A stretch of DNA of 64,000 nt from Escherichia virus TH47. The position numbers were made by a program, and so were the translations under genes. Position 1 is the first letter of the stretch. Each line of letters begins with the position of its first letter. The notes below the pieces were generated by a model that saw nothing but the letters and a program-made list of their open reading frames with translations, ran no database searches and had not been told where the DNA came from. The stretch is taken from the sequence record MT446416.1; one strand, written 5' to 3'. Below, in pieces: positions 12,237-35,861 of this stretch.

Positions 12237-12244
12237 TATAAATA
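12237..12244 (+). promoter_or_regulatory. Candidate T4-type late promoter (TATAAATA)
   Basis: Exact TATAAATA 36 nt upstream of ATG 12280, first gene of the plus-strand baseplate block. Confidence 0.45.
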
Positions 12245-12279: not shown

Positions 12280-13011
12280 ATGATTGATCGTAGAATCCGA
12301 TTAAGACCTAAAACCGCAGGTGCTAACTATGTGTATGGTGATTTTGGCAACAGTTCAGAACCAACATTGCTATCGTTTCTGCGTCCAACAAATGGTTTGG
12401 TTTGGACTGTAACCCCAACTGTAACTGAACAAAGGTCTGTTCAATATGAAACACAGTCCCCTATACATACTAACAGTAACTATAACAACTACAAGAATAC
12501 AACAAACACTGTTTTCACTATCCAAGGTGAGTTTTATGCGAACACTGCTGCTGAAGCAATGTATGCATTGGCTTGTGTTCATTTTATTCGTTCCGTGTCC
12601 TTAATGGACTTTGGTCGTCAAGCAGCATCTGCTAATAATCCCGAACTAGCAATTGCAGGTGCACCACCACCAATTTTACTATTAAGTGGGTATGGTCGTT
12701 ATACATATAATGATATTCCTGTTATTTTGAAAGCATATAATTTTACATATCCAAATGATGTGTCTTACATTCAGGTTCCATTGGATAGTAGTGATAGTAC
12801 TTTTAATTTATCTGATATGGATAGTCGTAAATTCTTCGAACAGCTTAGAAGTACTGGATATATGAATCCACAAGATGAGGTATGGGTTCCACAGAAAATA
12901 TCGGTAACGCTTCAACTTGAAGAACAACCAACATCTGATTACATGACTAAAAAGTTCAACCTAAATGCATTTAAGCGTGGTGAACTATTACGTAATGGAG
13001 GATTTATCTAA
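12280..13011 (+). CDS. Baseplate/tail structural protein (hypothetical)
   Basis: ORF-track start 12190 is TTG; first ATG 12280 with GGAGA RBS; first gene of baseplate operon; no firm family assignment. Confidence 0.4.
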   Translation: MIDRRIRLRPKTAGANYVYGDFGNSSEPTLLSFLRPTNGLVWTVTPTVTEQRSVQYETQSPIHTNSNYNNYKNTTNTVFTIQGEFYANTAAEAMYALACVHFIRSVSLMDFGRQAASANNPELAIAGAPPPILLLSGYGRYTYNDIPVILKAYNFTYPNDVSYIQVPLDSSDSTFNLSDMDSRKFFEQLRSTGYMNPQDEVWVPQKISVTLQLEEQPTSDYMTKKFNLNAFKRGELLRNGGFI

Positions 13012-13325
13012 TGTCCAATTATAGTCAATACTCTCCTTATGCAAAGGTTAAACAAACGTGGTATCTTGGTTACAATTTACCACGTGATATGGTTCCTGCT
13101 GATACTGACGACTTCTATGTAATTCCATTGAAGTATGAGCATCAACCTTGGCGTTTAGCATACGAAATGTATGGTAATGAACGTCTGTATTATGTATTTG
13201 CCCTATTGAATCCTGATATATTAGGAGAAGACCCAATATACAATTTTAATAGTGGTATCACAATTCGTGTTCCCTCAAATCAACGAGTGCAAAACTATTT
13301 GAACGGTACTCGTAACATAGGTTAA
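13011..13325 (+). CDS. Small baseplate protein, possibly LysM-like fold (gp53/protein-X-like?)
   Basis: 104 aa; GGAGG RBS; stop/start overlap with upstream gene; position before hub genes; motif DDFYVIPLKYEHQPWRLAYEMYGNERLYYVFALLNP loosely LysM-like. Confidence 0.3.
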   Translation: MSNYSQYSPYAKVKQTWYLGYNLPRDMVPADTDDFYVIPLKYEHQPWRLAYEMYGNERLYYVFALLNPDILGEDPIYNFNSGITIRVPSNQRVQNYLNGTRNIG

Positions 13326-15605: not shown

Positions 15606-18272
15606 ATGGCAGATACAAGTAAGAAATATGCCCAACAACAGTTGGGTCGTTTTGACCCTTCGTATCCACAACTAGCAACCGTGATGGATAACCGTGACCC
15701 AACTAAATCCGGTAAGCTAAAAGTGTGGATTCAAGGTTCACAAAGTGATAAAAATTCAAAAGAGTCATGGATTGAAGCATCATACATGTCTCCATTCGCT
15801 GGTAAAACTCCAGGGATACCAAGTGCTGATGCTTATGGTCAATATCCAAAGGGATATGGTTTTTGGGCGGTTCCACCTGATGTCGGATGTACTGTTGTTG
15901 TTATATTTGCACAAGCAAGAACATTCCAAGCGTATTGGATTGGTTGTGTTTATGACCAACGTATGAATACGATGGTTCCTGGAATGGCTACTGAAATAAG
16001 CAACTATGCTGGTACTGATATGCCATTACCCGTAACTGATTATGACCGTAATACAATTTCTACCAGTACACAAGACAAATATGCAAACGTTCCAATTATT
16101 GCAGGTCTGAAAAAACAAAACTTACTTTATGATGAGGAAGCGGGTGTTGCTAACCGTAGCAGTACTCGCCAAACTACCAGTACGGTTTATGGTCTTTCAT
16201 CACCTCGTGGTAACAGTTTTATTATTGATGATGGTTACACAGAAGAAGAATTAACAGCACCTACATGGGATCAAGATCCAGATGGTTATCAGGATACACA
16301 ATTCAATAACCCAGTAAACGATACTCGCGTTGGTTCTCGTAAAAATGAAGGCGTTGTAATTAAAACACGTAGTGGTGCACAGTTGTTGTTATCTGAAGCC
16401 TCTGGTGATGTTCTTTTAATTAACCGTGATGGTACTGCACGTATTAAATTCACTGGTGAAGGTGACATTGAAATGCACTGTGATAAGAATATTAACATTC
16501 GTGCAGGACAAGATATTAACATGGTTGCTGGTCGCTCATATAATATTGAAAGTGGAGCAGACTTCAATGCTCGTGTTGGTGCAAACACTAAACTAGATTT
16601 GGTTGGTGCATTGGATGCTAAAGTTGGTGGTCAGGTTGTTATTAACGCTGGGGCAGATTTACGTTTAGTAACAGCAGCTTCATTACGTATGCAAAGTGGT
16701 AGCAGTACTGATATAACTGCTGGTTCTAATGCGTCAATCTCTGCTGCTACCAGTGCTAATCTTATTGGTTCTTCATCAGCTATTATTAGTGGTGGTGGTC
16801 AAACTCTTACTGTTAACAGTGGTGGTAATAGTGGTACTGCTGAATTTAATGCACCAAACTTCCGCACCCCATCTGCTGGCTTGAATGAACATATACATGA
16901 TATATCGGCTTGGGTTGATGCAGAGAATCACGGCAGTACTGTTGAACCTCCACGTCAAGGTGGTGGTAGTGGGAATAGTGAATCCCCAGTTCAACCTGAA
17001 CCTGCTAATGATGTAGCTCCAACTTTAGCTCCAGTACAGGACACTGAAGCAATTCAATATGTAAATTATACAACAGAAACAGAACAAGTTCAAACACAAG
17101 ATTTAATGACTTCTGATCCTGGCATGGCTGGTTATAGCATTACGTATGAAGGTCTTCATATGTTCATGCCGTGTAGTGGAACCATTCGCCAATACGGTTA
17201 TTGGGGGAAAGGTGTCCCGACTAGTGGTGGTGGTAAAGCTGATAGAAGTGGCTGGGAAATACAGTGCAAGGGTGATGTTGTAGCTCCAGATGGTGGTGTA
17301 GTTGTTATCACGAATGGTGCTTTATTGGTTCAACATAAGTCTGGATATAAATCTGTATTTTATAATATTCAATCAGATTTGCTCAATAAAGACGTTGTTC
17401 AAAAAGGACAAGTACTGGGGAAAGCTAATGGTGTTATTCAATTTGAAATAAGAGTTACCTCTGCCAACGTACTGGGATTTAGTGGTTCAGTTGACCCTGG
17501 ATTATTCTATGCATCGCAGACTGGTACAGGTTCTGAAGCGGGAAATAAAACATTAATTGCAGGACAAGCAACGAACCAAGCAGCACCGAAAGCTGTTGTT
17601 CAACCTTCTGTTGATAGTGATGAATTAGTTGTCTCCACTAAAATTAAAACCATCGGTACTGGATATTCACAACGTGGTTCTAGGCATGTCCCTCGTCGTA
17701 GAAGAACACAACGTTCAGGTGGTAGTACCGCAGCACCAACTGCACAAGAATCATACAATGTTGGTAATGTTGACAAGACGGCAATTGACTGGAAAGTTGT
17801 TCCTGGTGATTCACAATTTATTTCCGAATTGAAAGAATATGAAGGGACAATGGCGTATCAACAAGCTAAAGGATATTACCGAAATGGTAAATTCTGGAGA
17901 TATTTAGACAGTCGTGGGTTCCCAACCATTGGTTACGGACACTTGATTGTTGGTGGAGAAAACTTCTCTGGTGGTATTACCGAACAGGAAGCCAATGATA
18001 TGTTAGTTCGTGATAGTAGTAAAGCTATATATGATGCCAAATCAATCTACGCTTCTTATAAGATGAAAACACCTTACATGGCACAACAAGTCCTATGTCA
18101 AATGGTCTTCCAGATGGGTAAAGGTGGAGTAATGAAATTCAAGTCAATGCTATCTGAAATGGCGAAAGGAAACTATAAGCAAGCTGCTGCTCAAATCCGA
18201 AATTCTGCTTGGTATCGCCAAACAACTCGTCGTGCTGAATTAATGGCACGAAGATTAGAGGCATGTCAATAA
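15606..18272 (+). CDS. Baseplate central spike protein, gp5-like, with C-terminal T4-lysozyme-type (GH24) domain
   Basis: 888 aa; middle Gly/Ser/Ala-rich beta-repeat region; C-terminal EYEGTMAYQ...TIGYGH...MVFQMGKGG matches T4 lysozyme catalytic region (E, D, T positions present). Confidence 0.8.
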   Translation: MADTSKKYAQQQLGRFDPSYPQLATVMDNRDPTKSGKLKVWIQGSQSDKNSKESWIEASYMSPFAGKTPGIPSADAYGQYPKGYGFWAVPPDVGCTVVVIFAQARTFQAYWIGCVYDQRMNTMVPGMATEISNYAGTDMPLPVTDYDRNTISTSTQDKYANVPIIAGLKKQNLLYDEEAGVANRSSTRQTTSTVYGLSSPRGNSFIIDDGYTEEELTAPTWDQDPDGYQDTQFNNPVNDTRVGSRKNEGVVIKTRSGAQLLLSEASGDVLLINRDGTARIKFTGEGDIEMHCDKNINIRAGQDINMVAGRSYNIESGADFNARVGANTKLDLVGALDAKVGGQVVINAGADLRLVTAASLRMQSGSSTDITAGSNASISAATSANLIGSSSAIISGGGQTLTVNSGGNSGTAEFNAPNFRTPSAGLNEHIHDISAWVDAENHGSTVEPPRQGGGSGNSESPVQPEPANDVAPTLAPVQDTEAIQYVNYTTETEQVQTQDLMTSDPGMAGYSITYEGLHMFMPCSGTIRQYGYWGKGVPTSGGGKADRSGWEIQCKGDVVAPDGGVVVITNGALLVQHKSGYKSVFYNIQSDLLNKDVVQKGQVLGKANGVIQFEIRVTSANVLGFSGSVDPGLFYASQTGTGSEAGNKTLIAGQATNQAAPKAVVQPSVDSDELVVSTKIKTIGTGYSQRGSRHVPRRRRTQRSGGSTAAPTAQESYNVGNVDKTAIDWKVVPGDSQFISELKEYEGTMAYQQAKGYYRNGKFWRYLDSRGFPTIGYGHLIVGGENFSGGITEQEANDMLVRDSSKAIYDAKSIYASYKMKTPYMAQQVLCQMVFQMGKGGVMKFKSMLSEMAKGNYKQAAAQIRNSAWYRQTTRRAELMARRLEACQ

Positions 18273-18284
18273 ATATTTCAGTAC

Positions 18285-18292
18285 TATAAATA
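18285..18292 (+). promoter_or_regulatory. Candidate T4-type late promoter (TATAAATA) for lysozyme gene
   Basis: Exact TATAAATA 18 nt upstream of ATG 18310; second AATAAATA at 18268..18275. Confidence 0.4.
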
Positions 18293-18813: not shown

Positions 18814-19209
18814 ATGGCAATTGTTTTTAAAGGTTTTTCAACTCCAGTAGTTGGAAGAACTGAAACATTGTATGACAGTGAATTGGTTCGTCAGGATTTA
18901 ATGAATCATTTCAATACAAAAAAAGGTGAACGTGCATTTGATGCTGATTATGGGTTCATTGCGTGGGATTTGCTATTTGAATTGGATGGTTATAATACAA
19001 TCAACCTTTTGGAAGCAGATGCCCGTAGAATTATTAGCTTGGACCCACGTTTAAGCTTAAAGAAACTTCAAATATCAAGAATTGAGTACGGTTATCAGAT
19101 GGATATAGTACTTGAATATGTTGTTCTCAATACTCTTGAAGAATTAACTATAGTTTTTGATGCAAGAAGTAACAACAGAATGGCTACCTATTCTGTATCA
19201 TCTTTGTAA
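18814..19209 (+). CDS. Baseplate wedge protein gp25-like (GPW/gp25 family)
   Basis: 131 aa; KGERAFDADYGFIAWDLLFE aligns with T4 gp25 KGSRPFDPEFGCDLSDQLFE; size matches. Confidence 0.8.
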   Translation: MAIVFKGFSTPVVGRTETLYDSELVRQDLMNHFNTKKGERAFDADYGFIAWDLLFELDGYNTINLLEADARRIISLDPRLSLKKLQISRIEYGYQMDIVLEYVVLNTLEELTIVFDARSNNRMATYSVSSL

Positions 19210-23452: not shown

Positions 23453-23460
23453 CACATTAA

Positions 23461-23486
23461 GGCGTTCTTCGGAACGTCTTTTTTAT
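23461..23486 (+). terminator. Rho-independent terminator
   Basis: Short GC hairpin (CGTTC-ttcg-GAACG) followed by TCTTTTTT after stop at 23452. Confidence 0.45.
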
Positions 23487-23488
23487 AT

Positions 23489-23496
23489 CATAAATA
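23489..23496 (+). promoter_or_regulatory. Candidate late promoter -10 box (cATAAATA) for giant gene
   Basis: CATAAATA 37 nt upstream of ATG 23533. Confidence 0.35.
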
Positions 23497-23532
23497 AATC
23501 AAATGAATGAACGAATTATATGGAGTCCAAAA

Positions 23533-26500
23533 ATGACTAATAATTTTAAGTTTCAACCTACACAGATGGCTGAAGCAGTACAGAAGAAGCTTTTCATAAA
23601 AAGATTGCCTGAGTGGATGCAAGGCTTAGAAGATATTCAGAAAGTCAGTGATGATGTTATCCAACAATGGTTTAATCCGGCTGAAAACGAATTAGTTGAC
23701 GGCTACATTGGTGACATGGGTTCTCCGGCAGCAGCAGGGAACATCTTCTTACACGAGTCAACAGTCGCACGTCAACTATATCAGTTGTCCACTGCGTATG
23801 TCTCAAGAAATAATGACTCCAGCATTCGTTCAATTCAATTTTATGATGATCTAGTTGGCTATATGAATCATTACGGTGCACTAACCGAAAATGAAAGCCG
23901 TTTGTTTAATGGTAAGTTCTATTCATGGACCCCACCAATTAACCCAAATAAAATGAACAACTACAGTTCATACCTATGGGATTCCAAGAATAGCTATAAT
24001 ATCACAACTCCAGATTATATTGTTATGGAACGTGGTGCAGAAAATGGTAACACTTGGTCACTACAAAACTTCTGGTACACATTAGGTGAAACTTTAGAAG
24101 ATGGTACTATCCTAACTGAAGAACTAATGCAAGATTCCCGTTTTGTTCGTGCTCGTGCACCAATTATCGAATACAATAAAAATATCGAACTAATGAACTA
24201 CGGTACTAAATTCCGTGGAACAGTTGATTTGTTCTCTGATATTATTAAACCAGAAGATATCGTACAAAAAGATATTAACAGCGGTATACGTATCGATGGT
24301 ATTATTCCACAAGATGGTATGCGTATACTTTTCACCAGTATTGGTAACAATGGTGAAAACAACAGAATTTATAAAGTATATGTTAAACGTATGCAAGATG
24401 GAACACGTGTGTATGGTCTAGCATTAGATCCAGACGAAGAATCTGAAAGCCGTCCGAGTGGTGAACCACAAGATGGTGACGTAGTTCTTATTATCAAAGG
24501 TAATGAATTTGGTAACAGTTCCATGTATTGGAACGGTTCTCATTGGATTCAAGCACAGTCTAAAACTTCTGTGAACGTATTTCCACAATTCCAATTGTAT
24601 GACCGTAATGGTGTTAAACTAAACAACACTACTACCTATCCATCAAGTACTTTTACTGGTTCTTCACTATTTGGTTTTAAAATTAACTATAATTATGCAA
24701 CTGATAGCGTTTATGGTTATAACATTGAACTAGGTGATTACAATTATTACACATATGAGAATTTCCTACAATCAACTCGTTATACTTACGAGCATTTGGG
24801 TGTGGAAGTTGAAATTGATGGACTATATTACTATAACGTAATTGGTGAAGGTAATACAATGAACCTAGAAACTGATTGGGTTCGTAGTACTGAATACTCC
24901 AAACAATATGTTAAACAAACTCCACAGGTTGAACGTACAGTAATGTTTCGCGTGTTCAGTACTGTTTATGACATGGAAAGTTTCAAAGATCCAGTTGAAG
25001 GAATGTATGCTTATGTAATTGAAGTTGATAGAACATATCAATATTACAAAGCAGAACGTGAAACATATCTTGATTGGCATGTTATCGTTGGTGATGGTGT
25101 ACAAAGCGTTAAGTACAATCACACATTTGAATTGGCACAAAAAGTACTAGATAATTCTGATGATATTATTGAACTAGTTGTTGATGGTGTGGAAATAAAA
25201 GAATACACCAAAACTGTAGTTAATAATCAAGTACAAAGTATTACAATTGATAGCTCTGTTGATTTGGATGAAGATTCTGTTGTACAAATCAGAACTTATA
25301 GTAGCACTATCACTCCAAATAAAGAATTGGGTGCATATGAAGTTCCAATTAACCTACAAAATAACCCATATAATTCAAACATTGAATACATCAACCAAGG
25401 TGATTACACCCAGCACTTCCAAGATATTATTCAAAAGAATATTACATCTGGTTCTGCTGATGACTTTAACAATTACGAAGAACGTTTGGCTTCTGGTTTG
25501 GTTAATAATGGTGTAGGCACTAAAATTATTCAAAACGAAGCGTCCATGTTACCACTAATGGCACATACCGCTAATGAAGATATTGATTTGTTTGAATCAA
25601 TCATGTTTATGCAAGCAGAATACTTCCGCTTCATTAACAAGTTCAACACTCAAATGCTTCGTTTGTATGAAGAAGATCCAAGTGCTTTTCTTGGTAATAG
25701 TGCATCAAACATCGTAGATGCGATTCTAACAGCTATTAATATGGGACGTGATAGTACATTCCCATTCTACTATGACAACGTTGCAAGCACTGCTGGGTTT
25801 ATTCGTGCATTTGTCCCACCAACTCCACAGTTCTTGGGTATTTTGCAAGCTTATACACCACAAAAAGCAACATTCTTAACTGCTGGTAGTAAATCTAGCT
25901 GGTATAATATCAGTCATACTGGTATTATTTCAAAAGCATACCGTGTTATCAATGGTGTTGATAAAATGGATGACGTTGTTTTCGAATTGGAGAATCGTAT
26001 CTTTAATAGTATCGATCTTACTTTCAAGGATATTGATTATAAACCAGTACTAAACAGTGAAGATCTATTCCCAACTCCATATTTCACTGGTACTGATTAT
26101 AGTGCAGAAGAAAAGAAAACTCTATTGCTACGTGGTTACATTAACTTCACAGCAACCAATGGTATTAGTAACAGTACTCATGATTATGATGCAAATAACT
26201 GGAGAACTTGGAACTATACTGGTAGTTATTATGTTGTTGATGGTCAACGTACTGAAATTCCTGCTCGTGGTTCATGGCGTGCAATCTATACTGACCAATA
26301 CGGCACATATCGTCCAGCAACCCATCCGTGGGAAATGATGGGCTTCTCTCAACGTCCTACTTGGTGGAACCAAGAATACGAACCAACCGCAGTTCAAGTT
26401 GGTGAACGTGAAGGTGATGTTGTTTATGTGTATGAAGCACTAGTAATGAATGAAAGTGGTGATTTGGTCCCAAGTGGTTTGTGGGATATTGATGGTACTA

Positions 26501-29500
26501 TCGGTGACAGCAGTACTGGTACTATTTTGTCAGGTGAACGCCGTGGTCAATATGACAAATACAAGCGTTTCGGTGTACAGCCATTTAAAATCACTAAGAC
26601 TGGCGAGAAAACCAGCACTGGTATTGATATTTGTGAAGTTGAGTATATTGCACCTGAAGTTTTAGGTCTTGTTAGTGGTAATTTGGATCATCGTGCAGAA
26701 CCGTGGGCTTATGGTGACATGGGTGACATGGAATTCACTTACATGAACACTGCGATGTTTGCTTATGACCAAATGCTTCTTCTATACAAAGCAAAACCAG
26801 CACAGTTTGCAAACTATTACTGGGATACCCGTAATGATAACCTTAAACCAGTTTATACTGATGGTTCACAGTTCCTTTATGGTGAAACCCGTAAGCGTCT
26901 AAACTTTGACAGTACTACATTAGTACATGGTGAGAAAAATACCCGTACTATCGGTTATCAAATGTTTGTTAGTGACTATTTGATGTATCAGAACAAGAAC
27001 ATTACCACCAAATACGGTGACGTTGTTCGTTCTTCTTATGTCAATGTCGCTCACAAAATTGGTGGCTTTACTAAAGCAGACCAATTGACATTCACTGCTA
27101 AATCTTTCGGTTTGATTTCACAAGAAAACCAAACTATCGGTCTAGTTCGTTCCAATAACATTCTCGATGAGCAAATGAGTGCAGTAAAAATTACTTGGAA
27201 TGGTAGTGCATATCAAATTGATGGTTATGATTTAGTTGGTGCTAAATTTAAATATAAAATTCCAGTTAAAAATGGAAGAAAAGTAACTCTTAAATTGGAA
27301 GACAGAACTGTTGTTCATTACAATGAATGGAAATCTGAAGGTACATTAGAATATGGTAAAATATTCAATACATACCAAGAAGTTTATACTTTCATTTGTG
27401 GATATGGTGAATATCTAAAAGAACATGGCTGGATTTTTGAAGATGTAAATGATAGTGGTGCTCAACAAGACTGGACAACTATTGCTAAAGACTTTGTTAT
27501 TTGGAGTCAGAATAGTTTAAGTACTGGCGAGTTCATCTCCTGTACTCCAAGTGCAGCTAATGCTAAATTTGGTGCAGATTTTGGTTCAGTTCAATCTGTT
27601 ACACAGAACAGTGGTGGTGTTTGGTCATTACTTGATGATGAAAACCAAGGTATCCGTCAATATGAAATCGAAACTTCGCGTATCGGTAACGTATTCACAG
27701 TGAGAACTACATCCGAATCACAAAAACGTATGGCGTTGATTCGTTTGAGCCTAAGTTCATATGAACACGCAGTTGTTTTTGATGATAAAACTATCTTTGG
27801 TGATTTCATTTACCAACCAACTTATGGTGCTATTCAAGAATTGATTAAAATGTATGGTTACATTACTGGGTCATGGACTGGTCGCCTACAAGCACCTGGT
27901 TTCATTATCCTAGAAGCAGGAACTTTACCATCATTTGAAAAATTAGTAACTGATTTTGATTTATATTATAATAGTGAAACTCCTGTGAGTGATGTTCAGC
28001 TTCAAGAGTTATCAAATCACTTGATTGGCTATCAAACTCGTGATTATCTACAACGTATGATTAGTAGTGATGTTAGTCGTGTTGATTTCTATAAAGGATT
28101 CATTCATGACAAAGGTACTAACCAAGTAATGGAAAAAGTACTACGTGTTTCTAAATCTTACGACACTGATGAATATAAAGCACTTCAGGAATGGGCATTT
28201 AAGATTGGTACTTATGGTAATATCAATGGTAAGAAAAATCTACAATTTAAACTAATCAATGACCAATTTAAACAACAACCACAGATGGTTTCGTTTGATG
28301 TTAATGCTACATCAAATGGTACTGGTAATGGTATTGTTTATTACGGTGAACAAGGGGTTGACCCACGCTGGATTACTCGCCCAAATGGTAAGTTTTCATT
28401 CCCAATGCGTAGTGGAAGAAGTGAGAACATTCAACTTCCAGACATTGGCCCTGTAACACTAGATGAAATTTCATATGTTACTAAAGATTTCAGTACTGCA
28501 TATAATGATCGTATCAATTATATGAATAACAGTGGTGAAATCCCAGATTCTGTATGGATGTTTAAAGATGGTAATGATTTGTGGAATATTTTCGAACTAG
28601 TAGACACTGAAGTTGAGATGCTCTCTATCGTTCCAATTGAAAATACCGATGTATATGCAGAACAATTCTGTAAAGTAACTCTAAGTGATGATATCCCACT
28701 AAATGATGGTGATTATTATTACTTTGTTGATGAAACTAACTTTATGCCAGATACATTGACTATAGAAAGTCAATATTATACTGCGGGTAATGACCCTAGA
28801 GTTATGGTAGTTCCGTTTGACACTTCAATCACTATTGACTTCACTGATCCTGATACTCGCCCACGCTTGTATCGTTATGTTTCACGATTCAGTACTGAAG
28901 AGATGCGTCAGGAATACATTGACAGAAAATATAGTTTTAAAGCTCCACAAAGTACTTTGTTTGACCGCCCAACCACATATGATGAGCGTACTAACATTAC
29001 TGCGTTGTACCTAAACGTGTTTGACCCAATCAACGGTGTTATTCCTGGTGCAGCGATGCAGAACGTTACCTACACATCTCCAGTTGACCCAGCACAATAC
29101 AACAGCAATGGTGAATTGATTCAAGCATGGGGTGCTGATAAAGTTGGTCAGGTTTGGTGGAACACCAGCACTGCTTTCTACTTAGATTACACTCGTGCAA
29201 TCTATGATGCTGATGGTAATGTGGATGTTGATGCAACAAATGAATATAAACGTTATAACTGGGGCAGATTGCTACCGCACAGTACTGTTGATGTTCTTGA
29301 ATGGGTATGTTCGCCAGTTGAACCATATAACTGGGACAAATACTGCAAAGACGTTGCTAACAAAAATAAAAACAACACTATGTACCTACCAAGCGGAACC
29401 GCATTGGAAGATAATTATAGTACGTTCTTAGAATATGATAGCACAACTGATACTTATGTTACAAAATACTATTTCTGGGTGCGTGATACAATCTATGTGC

Positions 29501-32500
29501 CACCATTGCATTCCAGAACTAAATCTTGTACTGATATTGCTCGTATTATTAAAGAACCAGCACAGCTTAACATTCCTTGGTTTGCACCAATCAATGAAAG
29601 CTCGTTCATTCTAAGTAATATGCAATTTGAAGTCAACGATGACACAAGTATTTTAACTGTTTCTTATTACATGGATAATACTGAAGTTATTAAACATGAC
29701 CAGTATCAATTATGTAAAGAAGGTGATAGCTATAACTTCAATCCATCAATCTGGACTTCTATGTGGAATTCTATGATTGGTCAAGAAACTACTGAATCAG
29801 GAACTGTTATTGATTTACTATATCCTTTAGTACCAAACGGTTTAGGTTCTAATAAGACTTGGTTCCAAGATGTAATTGAAGCTCGTAGAAACTTTGTAGA
29901 AAGTGCAAATAACTATTATCGCTCACAGAATATAACAACTAACACTGTTCTAATGGACGAAGTGTTTAATGTTAAAACTACTGAAGTTAACCCGAATGAA
30001 GTATCATATCGTGTACTAACTTACAATAGTGAATTAGTCATTGCACCTGAAAGTGACAAGTTCAAAGAAAACGACGCAGTACTAGTAAGTACTAGTGGTG
30101 TATTACCTAACCCACTATCAACTAGCTCTGTATATTTTGTGCATATTGATGCTAATGGTTATATTCATCTAATGAATAGCCCATCAAGTGCTGGTAGTGT
30201 GGTTACCATTACATTGGAAAACCGTGGTGAAGGTCAACAGAAAATGATTAAACAATCAGACTATGTTGAAGCACTAGGAACTTCATTGGACATGACCCAG
30301 TACTGGTCACTAGCAGATTGGTATGATATTGGCTACGATAAAAATACTGCATATACACAAGAATCCAGCCTAGAAGATGCAAACACTAAGAACTATCAAG
30401 TTGGTGACATTATCAGAATTACAGATGTTGATGGCATCTGGACATTGTACATTAAAGCACAATCACGTGATTCAGTTTACTGGAAAGCAATTGGTCGTGA
30501 AAATAGTACAGTTGAATTGAATGATATGTTATACGCTGACTATACAGTTCGTGATGCTAATGGTTCGTTGAGTAATCGTGAGATTAACGTTCGTAAAGCA
30601 CTAGCTTTATTGAAGAACTCATTCGATTTACATCAGAGTGAAATTGTGTTTGATATGGTTAAGTATGTTCACGTAGAACAAAGCGTTGTTGATTGGGTAT
30701 TCAAAACATCTTACATTTATATTGTAGGTTTAGAACAATCATTAGTACAGAACTATTCCAACGACAACTTGATTAATCAAATCGTTGAGTACTTTGAAGA
30801 AGTTAAACCATATAGAACTAAGATTCGTTCCCAGATTGAACAGAAAACTTCAGATGATGATTTAATTAAAGGTTTGTGTAATGATTTAGATCCTAATGGC
30901 TATATATTTGCAGATGGGACTTGGGTTAAAACGGAAAAAGACATTTGGGATTATGAATATGCTCAATTCAATGAGGTAACTCAACGTTGGGAGCAAGTTG
31001 GTGAATTGCCAAGTGATTTCGTAACACCTAATCGCCGTTTCCAAGAAATTGATGTTATCATGCACTACGACAACACTCAATGTAAACCAAATGATAATTT
31101 GGCAAGTGTTGATGTATTGGAAGAAGTGAATAAAAAATATCAATCTAATGCACAAGATGTTGTTAGTGATTTTGAATTACAACGTTACAAATATACATTC
31201 CCAGAATACAGTGATGAAGATTTCGACCTATTGGTTGCTTATCAGATGCAATTGTATTACCCAGAATTGAACGTAACTCTAGGGATTGCTTATGGTGTTA
31301 ACCAATGGTATGCAGAACATGCAGATGATTTGGTAGCAACCGCAGAATTCACAGAAACGTTGAATCGTGTATATAAAGAATCAACACAGAATGAAATGTT
31401 TAATGACGTAAATCATTATGTTCAGTATAACACACTCTCTAACCGTTTGAAATTGTACACAGGTGCAGATGATGAAGTAATTCATGATGAGGTTGGATGT
31501 GGATTTAGTGGGTTAACTTACGATGATAATCCAAGCACCAGACTACCGTTTGGTTACGCATCCAGTACTGATTATAACTTTGGTTACTTTGAAGTTAGTA
31601 GTGAGTTGTATAATAAGTATGTTTCTTTAATTAAAGAAAACAATACTACTGCAACTGATGATGAAGTTAGAATTATACTTGAAGTTGAATATGGTGTTTA
31701 TTCATATCGCCATGTAGATGAAGATGGAAATCAACGATTCTACAATGACGCAATTCATGTATTGTCCGGTATGCGTGGTTTGTATGACAAAGATGCTACC
31801 GACCATTATGAAAAGGCTGAAGAAATACTAAGTAGAATGCCTATTGATATTCATGCATTTACTATGATGCCACGAAAATATGTTTATGTTAATGTTAATG
31901 GTGTATACGAGAGTATCCCAGATGACCAAAGCATTGATGATTTCATGGAAGACAAATTCATAACTGACGGTCAACTAGTTCAATTGGCAGAAATAAATCT
32001 TGATGACTTACCTCTTGATAGAAATAACCCAATGTACAGTGATTATCAGCACATCCTAGATAGCATCACCAATGCTAAGTACTACGATGATATGAATGCA
32101 TTTGATAACCTAGCACTTGAATCACAAACTTCCGAGTTAAAATGGGAAGTTGAAGGTGACGAAGTAGATCCGTACATAATCGACATTTCTGATATTAACC
32201 CATCAGGAAGAAAGATTGGTCAGATTCGCTTCACAGTTGATGGTTATGGATTCAATAGTGTTTCACGAGTTCAATTGAGAGACAATAGTAGATATAAAAC
32301 TGAAGGTATGGTTATTATCAACCCTTATAAAACAACAGAAGCAATTGTTAGTATTCCTTCTTACGCTAAGATTGAAAATGATATTAGTAAATCATACAGT
32401 AAGTATGATGAAAAATACTTCTATAAAATTAAATCAATTGTTAGTGATACAGAAGCTGAAGTAATTGACAATACCCTATCTGATGGTGATAAGGTTATGA

Positions 32501-33501
32501 TATTCACAACTGATGGTGAAGATTATGTGAGATACCAAAACAATGCATGGGAAACCATCTTGAGTGTATCAAAAATCAAAACTGACACCACACCAACCTT
32601 GTACACAGTAAGAAACACTGCGAACGGAACTGTAGAACTACTAGATAGTACTGGAGTTGTACTTCGTTATGATAACATCACTAAACAACAGAATGAACCA
32701 GCAATACCTCTAGCATTGAACATCGTTCGTATTAGAACCTTTGCTGATCCAGAATTCTTGGTTGATGGTGTTAAGTTGTATGAAACAAATAGAAATTATG
32801 CTATCGACGCAATGAACTATGAAGTATTCTACGACACAACACTATACGGTGGTTCTTATAATGATGGAATTACACCAGATGACGTTGATGTTTGGGTAGT
32901 GTCTAACGAGATATTTGAAGTTGATGGTGTTACCATTGATAACGGATATAACTTACCAATTACTGGTGCAGGTGTTCTTAGTGAGTTAGTGAGAACAAAA
33001 ATGACTGATAGTGTGGAAATTAACGTGTTCGAGTATGATGTTGGTATTATTCAACCTGTACTGAATGCTGAAGGGGTATGGGAATATGCATATCCACTAG
33101 TTAGTGATACATATATTGGTGTAGTTGGTGGAACAGTAACTAACATTACTGCTATCAGTGAAGAAAATGCTACTTATGTTTCACAACCAGATTCAGTTAG
33201 TCCATATAGTGTTACTAATAATGTTCTATCTGGTGCTGGTGCAAGTATGAATGATATTATTTCTCTTGGTTTTGAAAAAGTTGAAGTACGATTTGCAAAT
33301 AACTTACTCCGTGGGGTAATGTATAGTGCAGAACACGACTTTAAAGAGAATGTGACATATTCATTTAATGGATTGAACTTAGGTAAAGTTAATTTACTAA
33401 AACGTTATAGTGTTAACAGTTATCCAATCGAACTATCGGTTTACTCCGATAGTTTGCAAATAAGTGGTAATGACATTAAAAATCTATTAGAAGTTAAATA
33501 A
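23533..33501 (+). CDS. Giant (3322-aa) virion structural protein in baseplate position (gp7-like position; function unknown)
   Basis: Uninterrupted ORF of about 10 kb; start placed at ATG 23533 (GGAG RBS) rather than 23503; follows gp6-like gene; typical phage structural-protein composition. Confidence 0.5.
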   Translation: MTNNFKFQPTQMAEAVQKKLFIKRLPEWMQGLEDIQKVSDDVIQQWFNPAENELVDGYIGDMGSPAAAGNIFLHESTVARQLYQLSTAYVSRNNDSSIRSIQFYDDLVGYMNHYGALTENESRLFNGKFYSWTPPINPNKMNNYSSYLWDSKNSYNITTPDYIVMERGAENGNTWSLQNFWYTLGETLEDGTILTEELMQDSRFVRARAPIIEYNKNIELMNYGTKFRGTVDLFSDIIKPEDIVQKDINSGIRIDGIIPQDGMRILFTSIGNNGENNRIYKVYVKRMQDGTRVYGLALDPDEESESRPSGEPQDGDVVLIIKGNEFGNSSMYWNGSHWIQAQSKTSVNVFPQFQLYDRNGVKLNNTTTYPSSTFTGSSLFGFKINYNYATDSVYGYNIELGDYNYYTYENFLQSTRYTYEHLGVEVEIDGLYYYNVIGEGNTMNLETDWVRSTEYSKQYVKQTPQVERTVMFRVFSTVYDMESFKDPVEGMYAYVIEVDRTYQYYKAERETYLDWHVIVGDGVQSVKYNHTFELAQKVLDNSDDIIELVVDGVEIKEYTKTVVNNQVQSITIDSSVDLDEDSVVQIRTYSSTITPNKELGAYEVPINLQNNPYNSNIEYINQGDYTQHFQDIIQKNITSGSADDFNNYEERLASGLVNNGVGTKIIQNEASMLPLMAHTANEDIDLFESIMFMQAEYFRFINKFNTQMLRLYEEDPSAFLGNSASNIVDAILTAINMGRDSTFPFYYDNVASTAGFIRAFVPPTPQFLGILQAYTPQKATFLTAGSKSSWYNISHTGIISKAYRVINGVDKMDDVVFELENRIFNSIDLTFKDIDYKPVLNSEDLFPTPYFTGTDYSAEEKKTLLLRGYINFTATNGISNSTHDYDANNWRTWNYTGSYYVVDGQRTEIPARGSWRAIYTDQYGTYRPATHPWEMMGFSQRPTWWNQEYEPTAVQVGEREGDVVYVYEALVMNESGDLVPSGLWDIDGTIGDSSTGTILSGERRGQYDKYKRFGVQPFKITKTGEKTSTGIDICEVEYIAPEVLGLVSGNLDHRAEPWAYGDMGDMEFTYMNTAMFAYDQMLLLYKAKPAQFANYYWDTRNDNLKPVYTDGSQFLYGETRKRLNFDSTTLVHGEKNTRTIGYQMFVSDYLMYQNKNITTKYGDVVRSSYVNVAHKIGGFTKADQLTFTAKSFGLISQENQTIGLVRSNNILDEQMSAVKITWNGSAYQIDGYDLVGAKFKYKIPVKNGRKVTLKLEDRTVVHYNEWKSEGTLEYGKIFNTYQEVYTFICGYGEYLKEHGWIFEDVNDSGAQQDWTTIAKDFVIWSQNSLSTGEFISCTPSAANAKFGADFGSVQSVTQNSGGVWSLLDDENQGIRQYEIETSRIGNVFTVRTTSESQKRMALIRLSLSSYEHAVVFDDKTIFGDFIYQPTYGAIQELIKMYGYITGSWTGRLQAPGFIILEAGTLPSFEKLVTDFDLYYNSETPVSDVQLQELSNHLIGYQTRDYLQRMISSDVSRVDFYKGFIHDKGTNQVMEKVLRVSKSYDTDEYKALQEWAFKIGTYGNINGKKNLQFKLINDQFKQQPQMVSFDVNATSNGTGNGIVYYGEQGVDPRWITRPNGKFSFPMRSGRSENIQLPDIGPVTLDEISYVTKDFSTAYNDRINYMNNSGEIPDSVWMFKDGNDLWNIFELVDTEVEMLSIVPIENTDVYAEQFCKVTLSDDIPLNDGDYYYFVDETNFMPDTLTIESQYYTAGNDPRVMVVPFDTSITIDFTDPDTRPRLYRYVSRFSTEEMRQEYIDRKYSFKAPQSTLFDRPTTYDERTNITALYLNVFDPINGVIPGAAMQNVTYTSPVDPAQYNSNGELIQAWGADKVGQVWWNTSTAFYLDYTRAIYDADGNVDVDATNEYKRYNWGRLLPHSTVDVLEWVCSPVEPYNWDKYCKDVANKNKNNTMYLPSGTALEDNYSTFLEYDSTTDTYVTKYYFWVRDTIYVPPLHSRTKSCTDIARIIKEPAQLNIPWFAPINESSFILSNMQFEVNDDTSILTVSYYMDNTEVIKHDQYQLCKEGDSYNFNPSIWTSMWNSMIGQETTESGTVIDLLYPLVPNGLGSNKTWFQDVIEARRNFVESANNYYRSQNITTNTVLMDEVFNVKTTEVNPNEVSYRVLTYNSELVIAPESDKFKENDAVLVSTSGVLPNPLSTSSVYFVHIDANGYIHLMNSPSSAGSVVTITLENRGEGQQKMIKQSDYVEALGTSLDMTQYWSLADWYDIGYDKNTAYTQESSLEDANTKNYQVGDIIRITDVDGIWTLYIKAQSRDSVYWKAIGRENSTVELNDMLYADYTVRDANGSLSNREINVRKALALLKNSFDLHQSEIVFDMVKYVHVEQSVVDWVFKTSYIYIVGLEQSLVQNYSNDNLINQIVEYFEEVKPYRTKIRSQIEQKTSDDDLIKGLCNDLDPNGYIFADGTWVKTEKDIWDYEYAQFNEVTQRWEQVGELPSDFVTPNRRFQEIDVIMHYDNTQCKPNDNLASVDVLEEVNKKYQSNAQDVVSDFELQRYKYTFPEYSDEDFDLLVAYQMQLYYPELNVTLGIAYGVNQWYAEHADDLVATAEFTETLNRVYKESTQNEMFNDVNHYVQYNTLSNRLKLYTGADDEVIHDEVGCGFSGLTYDDNPSTRLPFGYASSTDYNFGYFEVSSELYNKYVSLIKENNTTATDDEVRIILEVEYGVYSYRHVDEDGNQRFYNDAIHVLSGMRGLYDKDATDHYEKAEEILSRMPIDIHAFTMMPRKYVYVNVNGVYESIPDDQSIDDFMEDKFITDGQLVQLAEINLDDLPLDRNNPMYSDYQHILDSITNAKYYDDMNAFDNLALESQTSELKWEVEGDEVDPYIIDISDINPSGRKIGQIRFTVDGYGFNSVSRVQLRDNSRYKTEGMVIINPYKTTEAIVSIPSYAKIENDISKSYSKYDEKYFYKIKSIVSDTEAEVIDNTLSDGDKVMIFTTDGEDYVRYQNNAWETILSVSKIKTDTTPTLYTVRNTANGTVELLDSTGVVLRYDNITKQQNEPAIPLALNIVRIRTFADPEFLVDGVKLYETNRNYAIDAMNYEVFYDTTLYGGSYNDGITPDDVDVWVVSNEIFEVDGVTIDNGYNLPITGAGVLSELVRTKMTDSVEINVFEYDVGIIQPVLNAEGVWEYAYPLVSDTYIGVVGGTVTNITAISEENATYVSQPDSVSPYSVTNNVLSGAGASMNDIISLGFEKVEVRFANNLLRGVMYSAEHDFKENVTYSFNGLNLGKVNLLKRYSVNSYPIELSVYSDSLQISGNDIKNLLEVK

Positions 33502-33507
33502 CAAAAA

Positions 33508-33536
33508 GGAGAGCAAATGCTCTCCTTTTCTTTTTT
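33508..33536. terminator. Bidirectional rho-independent terminator between convergent genes
   Basis: GGAGAGC-aaat-GCTCTCC hairpin with A-run upstream and T-run downstream. Confidence 0.65.
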
Positions 33537-35823
33537 ACGCAATAACTTTTTCTACTGCTTTAGTTCGTTTAGGTTTGATTGCCAATTTACCATCAATCAC
33601 ATCAAACGTTACGTTACCACCATTAACCAGAGAACCACACAACATCTCTTTAGCTAGTGGGACACGGATGTTTTGCTCAATAGTGCGTTTCATTGGACGT
33701 GCACCCATTCCAACTTTAACACCATTTGTTGCCAACCACTCACGAGCCGCTTTGGTCAGTGAAACTTTAACTTTGCGGTCTTTGATTTGTTCATTCAAAC
33801 TTCCCATGAACTTATCAATGATGCTGTCAATCGCTTCGCTGCTTAGGTCTTTGAATGTCACAATACTATCGATACGGTTGATGAATTCAGGTGGCAAGAA
33901 TGCTTTAATCGCTTTATCTTGTGCTGTATCACTACCGCTCATCCCAATACTACGCTTGGTTGAATCTGCTGCACCAAGGTTAGTCGTCATAATAACAGTT
34001 ACGTTATTGAAGTAAACAGTTTTACCTTGTGAACCAGTCAAACGTCCTTCGTCCAGAACCTGTAGGAAGGTTAGTAGTACTTTACGATCAGCTTTTTCGA
34101 TTTCATCGAGCAACAGTACTGCATTCGGGAACTGCTCAATCTTGTCGAGTAGCAGACCGTTACCAGAATCGTGACCAACATAGCCTGGAGGTGAACCAAT
34201 CAGTTTAGCAACAGTATGTTCCTGTGAAAACTCGGACATATCGAAACGAATCAGTTCAGAACCAGTTGCATCAGCCAGTGCTTTGGTAATTTCAGTTTTA
34301 CCAGTACCAGATGGCCCAACAAACATGAATGCACCTTGAACACTTGATTTATCACGCAGACCAGCACGAGCTACCATCACGTTATCAACCAGTTTCTGTA
34401 CTGCTTCTTCTTGACCGTATACACGAGAACGGAGTGCATCTGGTAGATTACGCATACGTTCACTTTCAGTGCAAGCAACCACGTTAATATCTAGGTTTGC
34501 GATACCTGCAACAACTTCTTGAATCAGTGCAACAGTGATGATGTTATCATCAGTTTCACGAGAACGTACTTTCGCTGCCGCCGCATCCATTAGGTCGATT
34601 GCTTTGTCAGGGAAGTGTTTGTTCTTCAGGAACTTATCACTTAGTGTAATAACTGCATCCATTGCTTCAGTACTGAACTCTACGTTATGGAAAGTTTCAT
34701 AAGTAGATTTCAAACCATTCACAATCGCACGGGTTTCATCAATTGATGGCTCAACTACATCAATTTTCATGAAACGACGAGTTAGTGCACTATCTTTTTC
34801 GATGTTTTTACGATATTCATCGTAAGTTGTTGCACCGATTACACGAATCTCACCACGAGATAGTGCAGGTTTGAGCATGTTGCTCATATCCATAGAACCG
34901 TTGCTTGCTGAACCAGCACCAACCATAATATGGATTTCATCGATGAACACAATAGTGTTTTCACGTTTCTTCAGTTCTTTTAGTAGGTTATCGATACGTT
35001 CTTCGAACTCACCACGGTACTTAGTACCAGCAGTCAGTGCACCTACGTTCAGAGACAGAATTTCAACATCTTTAAGATGCTCTGGTACTTCACCATCAGC
35101 GATTGCCTGTGCTAGACCATCAATGATTTGAGTTTTACCAACACCAGCTTCACCAGTCAGGATGGCATTCTTCTTAGTCTTACGGGCCAGAGTTTCAATC
35201 AGTGCAGAAAGCTCTTTCTGGCGACCAATCATTGGGTCAAGTTTACCTTCTTTTGCAAGTGCTGTTAGGTTAGTGGTGTAATCTTCTAAACCTTTTTGTT
35301 TGGACGATGGTTGCTGTTGTGCCACTTTTTTCTCCCCAGTTGGCTCATCACTAATGCTTTGAAGGTTGATTCCGTTGTCGATTGCTTCTACGTGCTTCTG
35401 TAGAGTTCGTGCTGCTTCAGTACAAGTGATACCCTCTTCACGCAATGCTGCTTCTAGTGCAGTATTTGGGAAGGACAAACACTCAAACAGTACAAAATAA
35501 GCATCAATTGAGAAATCATCACGTTTAAGTTGCTCAATTACTGATTTCTTAGAAAGTTCCTGAACTACACGGTTCACGAGAAGTGATGTGCGGTTCGCTT
35601 CATCACCATCAGCACTTTTAGGTGCATGTGGGAATGTTGTATTCTTCAGATATGCAATCAAACGACCGTGTAGGTTGTCTGCATCGATGTTCATATCTTC
35701 AAATACTGCTTTGATGCTATCGATTGTCAGTACTGTAGCACTTAGATGGTCAATAGTCAAGAAGGTATGACCCAGAGAAGTTGCCAGTTCGTCGCTTTTT
35801 TTGAATAATTGGGTAAGATTCAT
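33535..35823 (-). CDS. ClpA-like double-AAA+ unfoldase (Clp ATPase family)
   Basis: 762 aa from ATG 35823 (AGGAGA RBS; ORF-track start is GTG); N-domain begins like ClpA; two Walker A motifs GEAGVGKT and GPSGTGKT, Walker B FIDEIH and LLDEIEKA, GARPMKR sensor; no long ClpB M-domain; KRSIGM at the position of the ClpA IGL ClpP-docking loop. Confidence 0.85.
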   Translation of the reverse strand: MNLTQLFKKSDELATSLGHTFLTIDHLSATVLTIDSIKAVFEDMNIDADNLHGRLIAYLKNTTFPHAPKSADGDEANRTSLLVNRVVQELSKKSVIEQLKRDDFSIDAYFVLFECLSFPNTALEAALREEGITCTEAARTLQKHVEAIDNGINLQSISDEPTGEKKVAQQQPSSKQKGLEDYTTNLTALAKEGKLDPMIGRQKELSALIETLARKTKKNAILTGEAGVGKTQIIDGLAQAIADGEVPEHLKDVEILSLNVGALTAGTKYRGEFEERIDNLLKELKKRENTIVFIDEIHIMVGAGSASNGSMDMSNMLKPALSRGEIRVIGATTYDEYRKNIEKDSALTRRFMKIDVVEPSIDETRAIVNGLKSTYETFHNVEFSTEAMDAVITLSDKFLKNKHFPDKAIDLMDAAAAKVRSRETDDNIITVALIQEVVAGIANLDINVVACTESERMRNLPDALRSRVYGQEEAVQKLVDNVMVARAGLRDKSSVQGAFMFVGPSGTGKTEITKALADATGSELIRFDMSEFSQEHTVAKLIGSPPGYVGHDSGNGLLLDKIEQFPNAVLLLDEIEKADRKVLLTFLQVLDEGRLTGSQGKTVYFNNVTVIMTTNLGAADSTKRSIGMSGSDTAQDKAIKAFLPPEFINRIDSIVTFKDLSSEAIDSIIDKFMGSLNEQIKDRKVKVSLTKAAREWLATNGVKVGMGARPMKRTIEQNIRVPLAKEMLCGSLVNGGNVTFDVIDGKLAIKPKRTKAVEKVIA

Positions 35824-35861
35824 GTATTCTCCTAAATGAGTAGTCACTCTAATTAATAAAC

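Follow-up and report, generated by a model that had tools for sequence, protein, structure and literature searches.

Directly behind the gene for a gp6-like baseplate wedge protein, where phage T4 encodes gp7, Escherichia virus TH47 carries a gene for a single protein of 3,322 amino acids (aa). The locus lies in a stretch of 64,000 nucleotides (the window) from sequence record MT446416.1, and it raises the question of what so large a protein does in that position. The answer proposed here, with a probability of roughly 0.6, is that the giant protein is the third baseplate wedge subunit, a positional and functional counterpart of gp7/TssG that has been enlarged into a rim and fibre-docking platform. 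The equivalence to gp7 is functional and positional and is not demonstrated homology. This reading rests on the strict gp25-gp6-giant synteny, on mass spectrometry of virions, and on the lack of similarity to gp7-gp12 in the window and among the T4 homologues listed for phage CBB.

A single gene under purifying selection

The open reading frame (ORF) spans 23503..33501 on the plus strand, reads 3,332 aa from its first ATG, and translates without an internal stop. At ~35% GC, where stops make up ~7% of random codons, the chance of 3,300 open codons is ~e^-240, which excludes a chance ORF. ORFs in other frames or antisense to the gene are scattered and reach at most 93 aa, in line with the original prediction, which had taken short and scattered antisense ORFs as a sign of real coding. 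That prediction also placed the start at 23533, and this choice is preferred over the first ATG. A GGAG ribosome binding site (23522-23525) lies 7 nt before ATG 23533, the Met1 encoded there is nearly invariant in the family alignment, and the annotation of phAPEC6 gp245, the orthologue, begins at the corresponding ATG; together these make 23533 the better and likely start.

In comparison with the phAPEC6 gene, which is 82% identical, the ratio of nonsynonymous to synonymous substitution rates (dN/dS) comes to 0.083 for the gene as a whole and stays between 0.03 and 0.14 across all 250-codon bins. Purifying selection therefore acts on the giant frame over its whole length, with no hint of diversifying selection in dN/dS. 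The gene is 99% identical to its counterparts in Escherichia phages WPEC5, EC.P1, fEgEco12, Ecwhy_1, WPEC3, and BF17, and 82% identical to those of PBECO4, 121Q, and phAPEC6. These identities assign the window to Asteriusvirus, the RaK2-like E. coli jumbo phages, whose genomes measure ~380 kb (PMC13070987).

Could the giant ORF be several adjacent genes fused through an assembly or sequencing error, as the original prediction allowed? The record of the closely related phage CMSTMSU seems to favor this, as it annotates the region as 11 separate ORFs, and at one metagenomic locus (L025) the family protein is split over at least three. The giant gene is nevertheless one ORF in 34 phage records and in more than 100 metagenomic homologues, purifying selection covers the entire frame, and mass spectrometry of phAPEC6 lists a product of ~382 kDa. 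Moreover, the CMSTMSU record is flagged UNVERIFIED, and tblastn must join nine pieces to cover aa 1-2450, where 99%-identical relatives need one. The CMSTMSU split is for this reason almost certainly the result of indel errors in one gene. With these comparisons a fusion artefact has practically no chance of being correct and is refuted.

The CMSTMSU orthologue (L084, MH494197.1, 385-10257) is 98.9% identical in nucleotide sequence and is annotated as 11 small hypothetical ORFs; fragments of it also stand as separate BFVD/UniProt entries (A0A2Z5H...). At L025 (2840-16764) the family protein extends over at least three consecutive ORFs (2,613, 1,419, and at least 459 aa), with a break at the aa 2083-2253 hot spot. 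At a second locus, L006 (9977-17347), an ORF of 2,457 aa stops past the equivalent of aa ~2146. These two departures from the single-ORF rule reflect either a real split or an assembly error.

A constant place behind gp25 and gp6

The giant gene lies directly 3' of the gp6-like gene, separated from it by an 80-nt spacer. The genes of the module are ordered gp53-like, a 751-aa virion protein, gp5-like hub/lysozyme, lysozyme, gp25-like, homing endonuclease, gp6-like, and giant, which is the T4 order 53 - 5 - ... - 6 - 7. The window thus holds, as first proposed, a real, single gene for a giant virion protein, placed where gp7 stands in a T4-like baseplate module.

This place is always behind gp25 and gp6. 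At least 365 relatives came to light when IMG/VR was scanned, and 80 loci on contigs of up to 453 kb were analysed. The gp25-like, gp6-like, and giant genes follow one another in this order, abutting and on one strand, in 75 of the 80, and a gp5-like gene is also found upstream in 55. The same gp25-gp6-giant order occurs in RaK2, phAPEC6, WPEC3, and RsoM2USA. Complete uninterrupted giant ORFs of 2,457-4,589 aa are present at 30 IMG/VR loci. Giant virion proteins of this kind had been expected to be rare; instead, they are universal in a large clade.

A protein-database search returned 237 homologues, and the 120 listed with lengths are single ORFs of 2,780-5,638 aa with identities down to ~25%. 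At least 80% of the giant gene is found in one place in 34 phage records. Among isolated phages, tblastn against phage genomes detects the family in Asteriusvirus, Alcyoneusvirus (RaK2 ORF070w), and Eneladusvirus, in GAP32, CBB, Serratia BF, and Xanthomonas XaC1, and in PA5oct-like Pseudomonas phages, Atu_ph07, and Salicola SCTP-2; a homologue in Vibrio phage 2.275.O (P0069) was found by protein search. In Ralstonia phage RsoM2USA a version of 2,541 aa is encoded next to the wedge genes (PMC8504454). Orthologues of 3,310-3,361 aa align over 100% of the length at 50-99% identity.

Homology to the RaK2-like giant virion structural protein family extends over the full length, with PHROG 10938 ('virion structural protein') matching residues 1-3319 at E = 0. 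True homologues, with identities of 25-99% and the same gene context, include RaK2 ORF070w (PHROG 10938), phAPEC6 gp245, CBB_236, probably PA5oct gp128, RsoM2USA ORF361, and the Atu_ph07 'structural protein'. The homologues differ from the window protein in the C-terminal region and in insertions.

Orthologues are components of virions, as anticipated by the original prediction. Mass spectrometry of purified phAPEC6 virions detected gp245, confirmed here as the orthologue of the giant gene, as a protein of 381.88 kDa with 17 peptides (PMC7247149), and the orthologue CBB_236 was found in virions with 21 peptides (PMC5259590). The family is thus already in databases and virion proteomes as 'structural protein', and the ORF itself is not new. 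Published accounts call the homologues hypothetical or structural protein and nothing more, and assign them no functional role. What is new is that the protein is assigned to the wedge module throughout a very large clade, together with the domain map and the absence of any structural relative for 2,400 modelled residues.

A conserved core unlike solved structures

The protein divides into a core shared by the whole family (aa 1-2450) and a lineage-specific C-terminal region. The core is common to RaK2-like, PA5oct-like, Atu_ph07, SCTP-2, Vibrio, and uncultured marine jumbo phages. The C-terminal region evolves faster, with 72-82% identity to phAPEC6 vs 85-95% elsewhere, and is still under purifying selection (dN/dS 0.09-0.14). 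When its 873 aa were compared exhaustively by HMMER with 1.84 billion representative proteins, eight matches resulted, all of them to the protein's own family or its fragments. No internal repeats were found over the full length of the protein.

Two AlphaFold2 models, both built on 23 sequences, cover aa 1-1200 and aa 1250-2449. The first has a beta-rich part (aa 57-600), a helical bundle (aa 606-735), and a mixed alpha/beta part (aa 777-1175). The second is made up of several small domains, beta-barrel or Ig-like and alpha/beta in type, and how these are oriented to one another is uncertain; the likenesses listed for it are small adaptor domains (the N termini of CBA120 TSP4, T7 gp17, and tailspikes) and generic beta-barrel or Ig-like domains. 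In Foldseek searches, independent BFVD models from the family, including that of Atu_ph07 at 22% identity, fit onto the aa 1-1200 model with TM-scores of 0.6-0.83.

The modelled two thirds of the protein (2,400 aa) have no structural relative in the 2026 PDB, which includes the baseplates of T4, phiKZ, P1, and phi812. Neither a T4 gp7 chain nor a catalytic fold is among the structural matches of the modelled residues, and the models show no fold similarity to the solved T4 gp7. Searches of PDB sequences, whether begun from the single sequence or from a profile of the N terminus or of the full length, returned chance-level matches only. When the whole protein was scanned against Pfam, NCBIfam, and PHROG, its own PHROG family alone was recovered and no enzyme domain. 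A GNAT-like stretch at aa 2232-2291 (30226-30405), which resembles motif A of GCN5-type acetyltransferases (RGEGQ...ADWYDxGY), was non-significant (E 0.14-0.34) and was dismissed as noise. These results divide the expectation that such proteins are usually multi-domain, with a structural core plus enzymatic, adhesin, or ejection domains: the models are multi-domain, and no enzymatic or ejection domain appears in the 2,400 aa modelled or in the profile searches.

Three conserved segments stand out in the models. The helices predicted in the N-terminal segment (aa 10-16, 21-24, 27-30, and 33-47) have a pLDDT of 32-71 although they are conserved, the conserved helices at aa 1468-1543 also have low pLDDT, and pLDDT falls below 50 from aa 2398 onward. 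Segments aa 10-47, ~1410-1549, and 2398-2449 are therefore conserved and yet of lowest confidence, as is typical where a segment needs partner chains in order to fold. The stretch at aa ~1410-1549, the most conserved of the family, is a candidate inter-subunit interface.

The protein also has insertion hot spots. In marine homologues (P0094 and P0096), Pfam identifies FG-GAP repeats inserted at aa ~1700-1815 and a CBM5/12 module inserted at aa ~1245-1272, which argues that these loops are solvent-exposed. Many distant homologues (e.g. P0074, P0079, P0081, P0089, P0091, P0092, and P0096) share a short C-terminal motif, …GLQxSxxxxAxFLxxxP…, preceded shortly in some distant homologues by an 'INGExIxY…RGxxG' element; the window protein has a degenerate version of the motif only (EKVEVRFANNLLRGVMYSAEH, aa ~3247-3267).

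A proposed third wedge subunit

To our knowledge, in every solved contractile system the third wedge subunit is the product of the gene that follows the gp6/J/TssF homologue, usually without similarity to T4 gp7; a helical N-terminal portion joins two gp6-type chains in a bundle, and the rest points outward and carries spikes or fibres. For example, XM1 gp17 is a third wedge subunit encoded after the gp6 homologue and lacks sequence similarity to T4 gp7 (PMC10457771), and the same place and role are described for P1 gp16 (bioRxiv 10.1101/2025.07.21.665459); the gp7-like part of Alg12 is a further case (PMC8894135). In both phages the helix-turn-helix at this subunit's N terminus joins the core bundle and the rest of the protein binds spikes or fibres (PMC10457771; bioRxiv 10.1101/2025.07.21.665459).

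The giant resembles T4 gp7, which forms the wedge core with two gp6 chains, in standing directly after a gp6 homologue on the same strand and in being a large multi-domain structural protein; no other gp7 candidate is recognised in the clade. At 3,322 vs 1,032 aa it is 3.2 times as long, close to the threefold excess originally estimated. It shares with XM1 gp17 (242 aa), P1 gp16, P2 gpI, and T6SS TssG a gene position beside a gp6/J/TssF homologue and, as far as the models indicate, conserved N-terminal helices. It differs from these small subunits in being 10-15 times longer and in having no detectable N-terminal similarity to the gp6-like N terminus. In extracellular contractile injection systems, the gp7-like part of Afp12/Pvc12/Alg12 extends the wedge, is exposed laterally, binds tail fibres, and has been described as a hot spot of evolution (PMC8894135); it is a good analogy for the variable loops and C terminus of the giant; that extension measures a few hundred residues and is fused to the gp6-like protein, whereas the giant is a separate gene.

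A wedge built in this way would contain one copy of the giant protein, or six per virion, bound to two gp6-like chains, and the gp6-like protein is its presumed partner. The binding segment would be conserved, helical, and folded only in the complex, for which aa 10-47 and the helical part of aa 1410-1549 are candidates. By analogy with XM1 gp17 residues 1-48 (PMC10457771), aa 10-47 could form a helix-turn-helix that pairs with the two gp6-like chains in the wedge core bundle. The giant and gp6-like proteins would make up the conserved inner wedge with the gp25-like and gp53-like proteins, and the remaining ~2,400 conserved residues would form the outer rim as a string of compact domains. The T4 rim is formed by separate proteins, namely the rest of gp7 and gp8-gp11, of which the clade has no recognisable homologues. 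In favor of the proposal, similarity to T4 gp7-gp12 is absent anywhere in the window, and none of these proteins is among the T4 homologues given for CBB (PMC5259590). The exposed loops and the lineage-specific C-terminal 870 aa could provide docking sites for fibres or contacts with the host surface, and would relay the signal of attachment to gp6, gp25, and the sheath further in.

Several results weigh against a third wedge subunit. Sequence profiles link the giant neither to T4 gp7 nor to any other baseplate protein of T4. In hhalign comparisons, family profiles reached probabilities of at most 4% against T4 gp5-gp12, gp53, wac, and the gp6-like N-terminal profile, and two family profiles reached at most 0.5% against T4 gp7. 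A tblastn search of the window with T4 gp7 gave E >=0.6. An equivalence to gp7 thus holds for position and fails for sequence and fold. No part of the giant is linked to the gp6-like N terminus by hhalign; the third subunit of P1 has weak N-terminal similarity to the gp6-type domain I and no more (bioRxiv 10.1101/2025.07.21.665459), and the XM1 paper calls gp17 domain I homologous to gp16 domain I (PMC10457771). Mass spectrometry of orthologues places the protein in the virion generally, and its location in the baseplate is one that we infer, as are its stoichiometry, partners, and signalling role. The N-terminal helices at aa 10-47 are a low-confidence prediction. Finally, the models end at aa 2449, and the C-terminal 873 aa may hold an enzymatic or receptor-binding domain.

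A bolder extension of the third-subunit proposal would have one 380-kDa chain per wedge replace the entire intermediate and peripheral baseplate, which T4 assembles from gp7, gp8, gp9, gp10, and gp11. The 2,450-aa core with its unmatched folds would then represent a baseplate architecture peculiar to a very large clade of mostly uncultured jumbo phages, in which aa 1410-1549 and 2398-2449 might act as a wedge-to-wedge latch that triggers contraction. This extension is speculative, and the odds are against it.

Alternative functions

Two other functions have been weighed against that of a wedge subunit. The giant could serve mainly in host recognition, as an adhesin or fibre-like receptor-binding protein on the baseplate, with an unrecognised small protein filling the gp7/TssG position. 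Its C terminus is variable and lineage-specific, marine homologues carry the carbohydrate-binding and FG-GAP insertions, and the Foldseek matches that follow family members are tail-fibre proteins (such as the Mtd N-terminal domain and lambda Stf). However, the query TM-scores of these fibre matches are below 0.1, and the models are globular alpha/beta rather than fibrous. Receptor-binding proteins normally diverge with their host. The 2,450-aa core is instead kept across hosts from E. coli to marine bacteria, and selection shows no diversifying component. The features of a tail fibre or tailspike are likewise absent from the giant: it has no fibrous repeats, no beta-helix, and no fibre or chaperone domain in Pfam, and its divergence does not follow the host. 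Strict adjacency to gp6 also speaks against an adhesin, and this role is judged improbable.

Alternatively, the protein might be internal to the virion or ejected from it, as a tape-measure-like protein, a cargo, or an enzyme comparable to the 3,500-aa N4 virion RNA polymerase, its adjacency to baseplate genes being coincidental. The protein is very large, mass spectrometry of virions covers it with few peptides for its size, and the models stop before its C-terminal quarter, all of which would be compatible with this. Structures of the N4 virion RNA polymerase are in the PDB, and full-length profile searches against PDB sequences find nothing; the absence of an enzyme domain from Pfam, NCBIfam, and PHROG agrees with that result. 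A tape measure is contradicted by the predicted mixed alpha/beta, multi-domain structure, which is unlike a long tape-measure helix, and by the location of the gene after the wedge genes rather than before the hub. Hydrophobic, membrane-like segments were sought in the giant protein and are absent, and a coincidental neighborhood is difficult to reconcile with the gp25-gp6-giant synteny that 75 of 80 loci show. That the protein is internal or ejected is accordingly very unlikely.

Neighbouring genes and local signals

The coordinates of the module and of the segments of the giant protein are collected in Table 1.

Table 1. Features of the baseplate module and of the giant gene in the window
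Feature	Position	Strand	Remarks
gp53-like gene	13011-13325		Pfam PF11246, slightly below cut-off
gp5-like hub and lysozyme	15606-18272	+	
Stand-alone lysozyme, 162 aa	18310-18798	+	
gp25-like sheath initiator	18814..19209	+	Pfam PF04965 1.5e-8; PHROG 43; upstream in 73/80 loci
Homing endonuclease, 235 aa	19280-19987	+	PHROG 314, E 2e-14
gp6-like baseplate wedge gene, 1,153 aa	19991..23452	+	PHROG 10646 E = 0; PHROG 219 2e-20
Terminator-like hairpin and T run	23459..23480	+	spacer between gp6-like and giant genes; 1 site vs 0.2 expected
Near-match to T4 late-promoter motif	23490-23497	+	CATAAATA, one mismatch; 36 nt upstream of giant-gene start
Alternative upstream ATG of giant gene	23503	+	+10 aa
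Giant virion protein coding sequence	23533..33501	+	3,322 aa plus stop; 380 kDa; pI 4.5
Family-wide conserved core, aa 1-2450	23533..30882	+	BLAST coverage, conservation profile, tblastn, Foldseek BFVD
Modelled N-terminal block, aa 1-1200	23533..27132	+	compact, multi-domain; pLDDT 84.8, pTM 0.79
N-terminal conserved helices, aa 10-47	23560..23673	+	motif LPxxxQT...KFF...FxP
Modelled middle block, aa 1250-2449	27280..30879	+	pLDDT 74.1, pTM 0.47
Most conserved stretch, aa ~1410-1549	27760..28179	+	EHAxxFDNxTIFGDxIYxP...WNGRLxAPGF...FYxGFIxxKGT; 2.5-2.8 bits; pLDDT 32-57
Main insertion hot spot, aa ~1700-1815	28630..28977	+	marine homologues: up to ~1,200 extra residues
Smaller insertion hot spots	aa ~150-160, ~1245-1272, ~2130-2250		
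Last conserved block, aa 2361-2440	30613..30852	+	VDWVFKTSYI...EVKPYRTKIR; family core ends here
Lineage-specific C-terminal region, aa 2451-3322	30883..33498	+	aligns only within RaK2-like lineage
ClpA-like AAA+ ATP-dependent protease gene	33535-35847	-	converges on giant gene 3' end

The gp6-like protein is itself oversized, at 1,153 aa vs 660 aa in T4, and is mostly 1,100-1,220 aa long in 75 related loci; the general wedge-protein profile (PHROG 219) is matched by its N-terminal ~125 aa only. The stand-alone lysozyme matches positions 727-885 of phrog_13211, as does the C-terminal lysozyme domain of the gp5-like hub; by this shared profile match it is a duplicated lysozyme module beside the hub gene. 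The gp25-like and gp6-like genes are ~100 bp apart in WPEC3 and phAPEC6 and ~250 bp apart in RaK2, in each case without an annotated gene between them, and the homing endonuclease at that place in the window therefore looks like a recent mobile insertion in the wedge operon. The ClpA-like protease gene is placed alike in RaK2, phAPEC6, and WPEC3. It was considered as a conserved partner of the giant and rejected, because no homologue lies within the 0.4-6 kb of sequence available downstream of the complete giant ORFs in 30 distant loci.

The near-match CATAAATA in the spacer before the giant gene is a putative promoter. The T4 late-promoter motif itself, TATAAATA, is not enriched in the window (2 sites vs 6.8 expected by chance). 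Both copies, at 12237-12244 and 18285-18292 on the plus strand, lie 18-36 nt 5' of the starts of structural genes, namely those of a 243-aa virion protein (start 12280) and the lysozyme (start 18310).

Implications for jumbo phage baseplates

RaK2-like phages, Asteriusvirus, PA5oct-like phages, and many marine jumbo phages are in development for therapy and abundant in nature, and their baseplates are without structures. With six copies of 380 kDa, as the proposed stoichiometry implies, the giant protein would probably contribute ~2.3 MDa to each baseplate. The RaK2 literature does not identify the baseplate site that receives the fibre anchor, and the giant is likely the platform where the hyperbranched fibre systems attach. 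The general understanding of contractile tails is unchanged by this protein. For this clade, its constant pairing with the gp25 and gp6 homologues, its 2,450-aa core without a structural relative, and its mappable, variable exposed sites make it a target for cryo-electron microscopy and for the engineering of fibre attachment.

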